Shown: positions 9,433 to 10,317 of the stretch, piece by piece
Layout of the letters: each line of letters begins with the position of its first letter
Position numbering within the stretch: position 1 is the first letter of the stretch
DNA from: a virus
Lineage: Duplodnaviria > Heunggongvirae > Uroviricota > Caudoviricetes
Direction: 5' to 3' (one strand)
DNA length: 25,141 nucleotides
Virus record (IMG/VR): IMGVR_UViG_2541047778_000011
Position numbers and translations under genes: made by a program
Notes under the pieces: generated by a model
The model's input: the letters and a program-made list of their open reading frames with translations, nothing else
Databases searched by the model: none
Told to the model about the DNA's origin: nothing

Positions 9433-9580
9433 TTGATGATGCCTCTGTGTGAAATGACGGTAAACGACGCACTTGTGCCGGCACATAATAGCAAGCACCA
9501 TAATAGATCAGATTCGATTCTTGCTGTAAGTGATAATTATTCTCGTTTTCGGGTCCTTTCCGTCGATCCAACAGGTTACG

Positions 9581-9592
9581 GGGCGGCGACCT
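9581..9592. other. cos: cosN: 12-nt cohesive-end sequence GGGCGGCGACCT (lambda-type cos nicking site)
   Basis: ...GGGTCCTTTCCGTCGATCCAACAGGTTACG | GGGCGGCGACCTCGCGGTTTTTCACTATTTATGAAAATTTTT matches the lambda right-end / left-end junction as recalled. It lies 188 bp upstream of nu1. Confidence 0.85.
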
Positions 9593-9768
9593 CGCGGTTT
9601 TTCACTATTTATGAAAATTTTTCAGGGAAAATCGTGTCGGTACTTCTCGAATATAACTTTTTGTTTTTTTTAATATTGCATCCGTAAAGGTCCGACATGA
9701 AAGTGTCCGAAAATGCCTTTTTCTGGCGTTTTCATGTCGGGCCTTGTATTTGATAATGGGTTGTTTTC
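9593..9768 (+). promoter_or_regulatory. cosB-like terminase small-subunit binding region (R-type repeats with an AT-rich probable IHF bend site)
   Basis: Repeats with core (C/T)GTGTCGG / CATGTCGG at 9632..9640 and 9730..9745, and an inverted copy at 9687..9702 (AAGGTCCGACATGAAA vs TTTCATGTCGGGCCTT, 15 of 16 complementary). AT-rich block between them at 9655..9680. Confidence 0.6.
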
Positions 9769-10317
9769 ATGAAGGTTAATAAAAAGAGGCTTGCCGAAAT
9801 TTTCAACGTGGACCCGCGGACGATTGAACGCTGGCAGTCTCAGGGACTCCCTTGCGCCTCCAAAGGTAGTAAGGGCATTGAATCTGTATTTGATACTGCC
9901 ATGGCAATTCAGTGGTATGCGCAGAGGGAAACTGATATCGAAAACGAAAAGCTCCGCAAAGAACTGGACGATTTGCGTGCGGCAGCGGAGTCAGATTTAC
10001 AACCCGGCACCATTGACTATGAACGCTACCGGCTCACAAAAGCGCAGGCAGATGCGCAGGAACTGAAAAATGCCCGTGAAGACGGAGTAGTGCTGGAAAC
10101 TGAACTGTTTACCTTCATTCTGCAACGTGTGGCACAGGAGATTTCGGGGATACTTGTGCGTGTGCCGTTGACATTACAGCGTAAATATCCGGACATTTCA
10201 CCATCACACCTTGATGTGGTGAAAACTGAAATCGCGAAAGCCTCCAATGTTGCAGCTAAGGCCGGTGAAAACGTGGGCGGGTGGATCGATGATTTCAGAC
10301 GCGCAGAAGGCAGCTAA
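9769..10317 (+). CDS. nu1: Terminase small subunit (Nu1-like)
   Basis: 182-aa product [28 protein letters not shown]... aligns by eye to lambda Nu1 (ENEKLRKE..., [26 protein letters not shown]) with a divergent N-terminal DNA-binding region. Confidence 0.9.

Follow-up and report, generated by a model that had tools for sequence, protein, structure and literature searches.

Positions 9540-10317 of the window, a stretch of 25,141 nucleotides of viral DNA analysed as a whole, almost certainly comprise the cos site (cosQ-cosN-cosB) of coliphage 21 and its gene 1, which encodes the small terminase subunit (TerS); both lie in a phage-21-like prophage integrated at icd. A megablast search of 9400-10400 against GenBank phage records aligned window 9415-10400 with M81255 ('Bacteriophage 21 head gene operon') over 986 bp at 100% identity, and X02501 and the complete phage 21 genome OL657228 each matched over 820 bp, likewise at 100%. 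Base 1 of OL657228, the left end of the virion DNA, corresponds to window position 9581. Each feature of the three records (cosQ, cosN, I2, R3, I1, R2, R1, I0, gene 1 and gene 2) has its exact counterpart in the window, and sequence identity and subsite architecture are thus demonstrated directly. No sequence evidence against the identification of cos and gene 1 was found. An earlier note on this DNA had compared the locus with the known split between lambda and phage 21 and had proposed packaging specificity of the 21 type. This reading is correct and also textbook, because the records that carry the cos annotation match base for base. The locus is the cos and gene 1 of phage 21 itself, already known and not new; the prior record covers the literature, the GenBank annotation, the subsites, the specificity determinants and a crystal structure of the gp1 DNA-binding domain.

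The likeness to phage 21 extends well beyond cos. The left arm (9581-25141) is collinear with phage 21 bases 1-15,521 at 99.2% identity, and the prophage attachment site is icd in both. On the lysis side, which the earlier note had rightly called 21-type, window 6514-9580 aligns with phage 21 39865-42931, at the right end of that genome, with 98.2% identity. The context differs from phage 21 in four respects: an IS3-family element has deleted the early region, the Q / porin / nin segment is unlike its phage 21 counterpart, 50 SNPs lie in the holin region and gene V contains a 39-nt duplication. This type of cos is not rare in E. coli. At least 80% of 9540-9770 was present in 628 of 5426 complete genomes (megablast, near-identity), and a more permissive blastn search with a longer query found at least 80% of 9540-9900 in 1212 genomes.

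Subsites of cos

All elements listed in the earlier note are present, and their order is that of phage 21, cosQ-cosN-I2-R3-I1-R2-R1-I0-gene 1-gene 2 (Table 1). As expected for the phage 21 class, the 5′ cohesive end is accompanied by cosQ about 30 bp upstream. The cohesive end occurs once in the window, also when one mismatch is allowed. The nicks are predicted at 9580/9581 on the top strand and at 9592/9593 on the bottom strand, the top position being base 1 of the phage 21 virion record. The cohesive end and its flanks do match lambda, as had been noted: in addition to the values for cosQ, the cohesive end and cosN given in Table 1, 70/80 positions agree across 9550-9629.

Table 1. Features of the cos region, the terminase genes and the left end of the window, with matching records and lambda identities
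Feature	Position	Strand	Record or comparison
Phage 21 integrase gene, 3′ part	1-718	-	
IS3-family element, 1310 bp, terminal inverted repeats TGAACCGCCCCGGG, transposase ORFs of 108 and 296 aa	719-2028		
Putative R4 box	9550-9561		M81255 136-147; lambda 12/12
cosQ (GGGTCCT), packaging-termination subsite	9551-9557	+	OL657228 42902-42908; within putative R4; lambda 7/7
cosN, terminase nicking region	9564-9610	+	M81255 150-196; lambda 43/47
Cohesive end, 12 nt, GGGCGGCGACCT	9581-9592		OL657228 bases 1-12; lambda 12/12
I2, annotated IHF site, cosN-cosB interval	9610-9624	+	M81255 196-210; lambda 13/15
R3 (AATCGTGTCGGTACTT), critical binding site of the small terminase subunit	9630-9645	+	M81255 216-231, OL657228 50-65; core TCGTGTCGG
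I1, IHF bending site, R3-R2 interval	9652-9666	-	M81255 238-252, OL657228 74-86; lambda 12/15
R2 (TTTCATGTCGGACCTT on - strand; AAGGTCCGACATGAAA on +), inverted relative to R3 and R1	9687-9702	-	M81255 273-288, OL657228 107-122
R1 (TTTCATGTCGGGCCTT)	9730-9745	+	M81255 316-331, OL657228 150-166
I0, annotated IHF-like site, overlaps gene 1 ribosome-binding site	9752-9766	-	M81255 338-352
Gene 1 ribosome-binding site	9758-9761		M81255 344-347
Gene 1, small terminase subunit gp1, 182 aa	9769-10317	+	PF07471 (Phage_Nu1), E 1.9e-81; 100% aa to phage 21 gp1
Gene 2, large terminase subunit gp2, 642 aa, ATPase and endonuclease domains	10289-12217	+	M81255 CDS 875-2803; PF05876, PF20454

IHF dependence is stronger in phage 21 than in lambda. 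Within I1, the minus strand of 9654-9666 reads AAACAAAAAGTTA and differs at one position from the IHF consensus WATCAANNNNTTR; the minus strand of 9754-9766, within I0, also has a single mismatch. Across the whole window this consensus gave 17 matches with one mismatch allowed, against 18.5 expected. Since there is no enrichment, the I sites rest on published annotation and position, not on statistics. A scan of 8800-10400 for promoters and terminators returned only consensus-level matches near chance, and one 'terminator-like' match is cosN itself.

R boxes, terminase and packaging specificity

The three R boxes of cosB share the core TCRTGTCGG. It has only three matches in the 25 kb, all of them within a 115-bp stretch of cosB and in the orientation + - +. 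The expected count is 0.41, and three matches were reached in 0/100 shuffles; occurrence and orientation of the boxes are clearly non-random. The earlier note was right that the R repeats differ from those of lambda, but the core it had given, CATGTCGG, does not hold for the third box (9630-9645), which has CGTGTCGG. The 16-bp inverted pair that it had described at 9687-9702 and 9730-9745 is real but imperfect (15/16 complementary), and the dyad is longer, with 27-nt arms at 9687-9713 and 9719-9745. The tripartite R3-I1-R2-R1 arrangement with an inverted R2, together with the R sequences, places this cosB in the phage 21 class. In R3, bp 56 (9636) and bp 59 (9639) are both G, where lambda has T and C.

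Conservation of these elements was examined by aligning the window with four relatives at 81-87% nucleotide identity, namely phage IdasGreatGrand, two bovine/O157:H7-type prophages and strain RM13745. Among these four, 41/48 columns were invariant in the R boxes and 40/76 in the cosB spacers (Fisher p = 2e-4), R3 having 13/16 and R2 16/16 invariant columns. The recognition helix of gp1, RTIERWQS, was likewise invariant in all four; R boxes and helix are thus conserved above the spacers. A pattern scan of IMG/VR yielded 116 orientable loci, all of which carry the R2 and R1 cores, as these cores themselves define the search pattern. Every one of these viral contigs with an uninterrupted N-terminal frame has the RTIERWQS helix; in a few, the frame is shifted or runs off the contig.

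This helix spans residues 17-24 of gp1 and places E20 and S24, the phage 21 residues, in a TerS winged helix-turn-helix; lambda has RTIQNWQE, with Q20 and E24. Residues 1-54 of gp1 are identical to PDB entry 7lwr_A (54 aa, 'Terminase, small subunit'), and gp1 further matches the lambda Nu1 structures 1j9i and 6hn7. Gene 2 overlaps the 3′ end of gene 1 and starts at the annotated position 10289, not with the longer mechanical ORF from 10247. After gene 1 come, in order, this large terminase of the gpA type, gpW and a portal of the lambda family. While gp1 is identical to its phage 21 counterpart, including the C-terminus, gp2 and the portal reach 99.5% and 99.8% amino acid identity to phage 21, gp2 having 66% to lambda gpA. 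The 21-type chain is therefore coherent from cosB through the N- and C-termini of gp1 to gp2 and the portal.

Feiss and colleagues assign specificity to TerS residues 20 and 24 together with R3 bp 56 and 59, and report a clash of lambda Glu24 with the G:C pair that R3-21 has at bp 56 (PMC4669245). The window has the published phage 21 states at all four. Phage 21 and lambda each exclude the other's DNA from packaging, and a sequence identical to this cos is packaged by the 21-specific and not by the lambda-specific terminase (PMC4669245). With 986 bp at 100% identity to phage 21 itself, the cos and the small terminase described here belong to its packaging-specificity class.

How this copy would act is suggested by the literature on lambda and 21, the latter identical in sequence; binding, nicking and specificity are inferred for it. 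In the R3-I1-R2-R1 architecture, an IHF-induced bend allows a TerS dimer to dock on R3 and R2, with TerL anchored over cosN (PMC9026076). Thus, winged helix-turn-helix dimers of gp1 would bind the R boxes (R3, R2 and R1), and IHF would bend the DNA at I1 so that R3 faces the inverted R2. The C-terminus of gp1 would hold gp2 over cosN, where gp2 would introduce the two predicted nicks, 12 bp apart. The complex would then remain on the cosB-bearing end and dock on a prohead, and DNA would be pumped rightwards up to the next cosQ-cosN. Specificity, with self preferred more than 1000-fold over the other phage, would be set by the R-box core and the recognition helix, since cosQ and cosN are those of lambda; the relevant differences would be the core (CGTGTCGG against CGTTTCCG in lambda, at bp 56 and 59) and E20/S24 against Q20/E24. 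Mutual exclusion with lambda is likewise expected.

Relation to lambda and to other cos classes

For comparison with lambda, NC_001416 was aligned across the cos junction. Window and lambda have in common R3 at bp 50-65, an inverted R2, an IHF site in the R3-R2 interval, the Nu1 family and the gene order. R3 itself agrees at 11/16 positions, and R2 and R1 of lambda (CTGTCGTTTCCTTTCT) are unlike those of the window in sequence. Neither R boxes with the lambda core CGTTTCC nor a Nu1 helix with Q20/E24 are present. As the earlier note had proposed aligning the locus with both phages, it can be added that the R elements and the Nu1 N-terminus are not lambda-type and are identical to phage 21.

The divergence of Nu1 had been placed in its N-terminal wing-helix region. 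The helix does differ from that of lambda, but divergence spans the whole of gp1 (52% amino acid identity overall) and is greater in the C-terminal part: identity is 53% for residues 1-68, 81% for 69-100, 48% for 101-140 and 32% for 141-182. The head genes diverge from lambda to the same level as the terminase, with 50% for W, 60.5% for the portal, 57% for C, 46% for Nu3, 53% for the decoration protein, 62% for the major capsid protein, 38% for FI and 64% for FII. The tail genes Z, U, V, G, H, M and L are 90-99% identical to lambda. Against phage 21, head and tail genes together show 98-100%, and the head genes (1, 2, W, portal, C/Nu3, decoration, major capsid, FI and FII) 98.5-100% as compared with 38-66% to lambda. 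Nucleotide identity to lambda in 100-nt windows is about 0.45-0.75 between cos and about 17,580 and reaches 0.88-1.00 beyond about 17,680, and BLAST places the joint to lambda-like DNA (about 95% nucleotide identity) at 17,605, inside FII. As the jump in identity and the BLAST joint coincide there, FII holds the only sharp mosaic joint between head and tail. Neither the per-gene nor the 100-nt identities to lambda revealed a mosaic joint within gene 1, between the DNA-binding domain and the remainder, or between the terminase and head genes.

The earlier note had seen a packaging module that is mosaic with respect to head and tail genes of the lambda type. These values do not support this for the head genes, which are all 21-type; only the tail is lambda-like. 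They also bear on a fuller form of this view, that a 21-type cassette comprising cosB and the N-terminal domain of Nu1 had recombined into a lambda-like head cluster, as in laboratory lambda-21 hybrids. The lambda-like cosQ-cosN-I2 segment (70/80) next to R boxes that are not lambda-like, and tail genes about 95% identical to lambda, would suit such an event. However, gp1 resembles lambda Nu1 less in its C-terminal than in its N-terminal part (32% against 53%), nine further head genes follow phage 21 and not lambda, the sole sharp joint lies far downstream inside FII (about 17,600-17,700) and 15.5 kb are collinear with phage 21 at 99.2%. We consider a cassette of this kind very improbable, and the per-gene identities refute it. 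The lambda-like tail genes and the FII joint are phage 21's own known architecture, with no new swap.

Even less probable, to the point of being negligible, is that the cos belongs to lambda, to the N15/Monarch or another specificity class, or to a PICI whose cos hijacks the helper terminase via Rpp. The cohesive end and cosQ are common to all these elements, and N15-type and PICI cos sites resemble the window in a lambda-like cosQ and cosN and in a site at the R3 position about 50 bp from the nick (PMC4669245, PMC9026076). But the R boxes and the recognition helix are not those of lambda, and the simple N15-type cosB has a single critical R3 without I1, R2 and R1, while the window has three R boxes and I1. 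In PICIs, cosQ and cosN are followed by rpp, without R repeats or structural genes; here the neighbour is a full-length TerS of the PF07471 family, followed by TerL, the portal and a complete head operon. These classes are excluded by the identity to phage 21, which is 100%.

The lineage of the E. coli O157:H7-type prophages and phage IdasGreatGrand has a cos/TerS of the 21 type that has diverged. It has the same R-box cores, the same recognition helix and a 59-nt R2-spacer-R1 unit, and most members have the same cohesive end. It differs in overall nucleotide identity (81-87%), in bp 55 of R3 (A, in the window G), in the wing residues (GGGKGV, in the window KGSKGI) and in the orientation of the 27-nt spacer between R2 and R1.

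The R2-R1 unit and the state of the prophage

R2, the 27-nt spacer and R1 together form a near-palindrome of 59 nt, a length that is kept in all four fetched relatives. Folded as RNA, 9680-9752 gave -35.5 kcal/mol (z = -9.3). The equivalent lambda segment gave -34.4 kcal/mol (z = -5.8); it is unrelated in sequence and forms a hairpin-prone palindrome of similar size. Compared with the O157-type lineage, the spacer of the window and phage 21 matches at 23-24/27 positions when reverse-complemented and at 16-17/27 directly. Among the 116 oriented IMG/VR contigs, 60 have the phage 21 orientation and 56 the flipped one, and orientation is perfectly linked to the TerS sub-lineage. This linkage points to one historical inversion and not to an active switch, and recurrent flipping was therefore rejected. 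It looks as if the spacer was inverted once, anciently, between the phage 21 and O157-type lineages, and a single inversion would fit recombination between the inverted R arms.

Whether selection acts on the two 16-bp boxes or on the whole 59-bp palindromic unit was also considered. We regard the latter as unlikely. Such a unit could act in the late mRNA, as a hairpin just ahead of the ribosome-binding site of gene 1, or in the DNA, as a cruciform-prone element. The RNA fold, its equivalent in lambda and the single inversion of the spacer speak for it. Equally well, the extended dyad may be a passive by-product of two inverted protein-binding sites. The spacer stem pairs of the window are G-U wobbles on the plus strand, and the minus-strand fold is at least as good as that of the plus strand in 3/4 relatives. 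The window and the four relatives showed neither a consistent strand preference nor clear covariation in the stem, and selection for an RNA hairpin thus stays a reading of low probability. A cosB hairpin or palindrome is not discussed in PMC4856287.

The prophage that carries the cos is defective. Beyond the IS3-family element the sequence resumes inside ninB at 2026-2029. Relative to the plaque-forming phage PhiR63_2, to which the remainder is 99.6% identical, 12,251 bp are missing and replaced by the element; the lost DNA runs from int to ninB, with the 5′ part of each, and includes xis, exo/bet/gam, N, cI, cro, cII, O, P and ren. Three complete E. coli chromosomes contain the int/IS/ninB junction with 100% identity. 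In one strain, SCU-116, the prophage lies directly after icd, where phage 21 attaches, and int and ninB are annotated in RefSeq as partial pseudogenes. The 39-nt duplication in gene V is in tandem. With the early region lost, the cos is usable only if a helper phage supplies terminase of 21 specificity, and the induction-based test of the earlier note, a cosN nick in induced particles, would need such a helper as well.

There is about an even chance that the cos is a fossil here, intact in sequence and never used, in a prophage without induction, replication or excision, which is compatible with its identity as the phage 21 site. The replacement of 12,251 bp by the insertion element, the partial pseudogenes of SCU-116 and the tandem duplication in gene V all speak for this. 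On the other side, cos, terminase and head genes show no damage and share 99-100% identity with plaque-forming phages, so a helper of 21 specificity could act on them, and the module could be rescued by recombination with incoming lambdoid phages.

As a phage 21 cos, the locus is of small discovery value. The window can now be assigned to a phage-21-type prophage at icd. In its corrected mosaic map, all of the head module is of the 21 type, and the lambda-like tail is joined to it inside FII.

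The R2–R1 palindrome and the reading frame across cos

Within cosB, part of the phage 21 packaging start (cos), the inverted subsite R2, the spacer and R1 together form a near-palindrome of 59 nt (window 9687-9745). Folded as RNA, the stretch 9680-9752, which includes the near-palindrome, yielded -35.5 kcal/mol (z = -9.3), and an equivalent fold is also found in lambda. In comparison to the O157-type 21-like lineage, whose cos and small terminase (TerS) sequences are diverged, the 27-nt spacer between R2 and R1 is inverted in the window. Across 116 viral contigs, spacer orientation and TerS sub-lineage displayed perfect linkage. 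In the diverged relative from E. coli RM13745 (L011, approximately 451-560), the cohesive end agrees with the published tolerance for changes at positions 7-12.

An open reading frame of 83 codons (9436-9687) covers cosQ, cosN, R3 and I1, and is annotated as 'hypothetical protein' in the intact relatives PhiR63_2 and PhiR57_1. In virion DNA this frame is split in two; it is most likely an annotation artefact.

The lysis cassette and its neighbors

Comparison with phage 21 revealed 50 differing positions within 187 nt (6523-6709) in the opening part of the 21-type lysis cassette, the region of the pinholin S21. The following 4.5 kb, extending through cos and gene 1 (TerS), contain four differences, all located at 6777-6795. 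This divergent stretch probably reflects either an alternative allele of the holin or a patch exchanged by recombination. The cassette is flanked by cargo genes encoding a porin, a Bor lipoprotein and a TonB C-terminal-domain protein, and phage 21 is devoid of the porin region.

Cargo genes around the lysis cassette
Product	Window position	Strand	Location
OmpC/OmpD-type porin	4844-5986	-	between Q and holin
Bor lipoprotein	7717-8058	-	beside lysis cassette
Small TonB C-terminal-domain protein	8437-8817	+	immediately upstream of cos

Loss of the early region

The prophage, which adjoins icd in E. coli SCU-116, is defective. Where the plaque-forming PhiR63_2 carries an early region of 12,251 bp, the window contains an IS3-family element, through which a truncated ninB is directly linked to a remnant of the integrase gene's 3' part. 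This insertion sequence of 1310 bp (719-2028, within 1-2046) resembles IS629/IS1203. Its terminal repeats are TGAACCGCCCCGGG, and its two open reading frames measure 108 and 296 aa.

The tail gene V and the junction with lambda

Gene V, encoding the major tail protein, contains a perfect tandem duplication (39-nt unit, 2.3 copies, 18971-19058), making it longer by 13 in-frame codons than its counterparts in phage 21 and PhiR63_2.

Nucleotide identity to lambda rises from approximately 0.6 to above 0.95 inside the head gene FII (17580-17700). The real mosaic joint with lambda is located in this interval. Since the jump occurs inside FII, the head genes are of the 21 type and the tail genes of the lambda type, a combination of heads and tails that phage 21 itself possesses.
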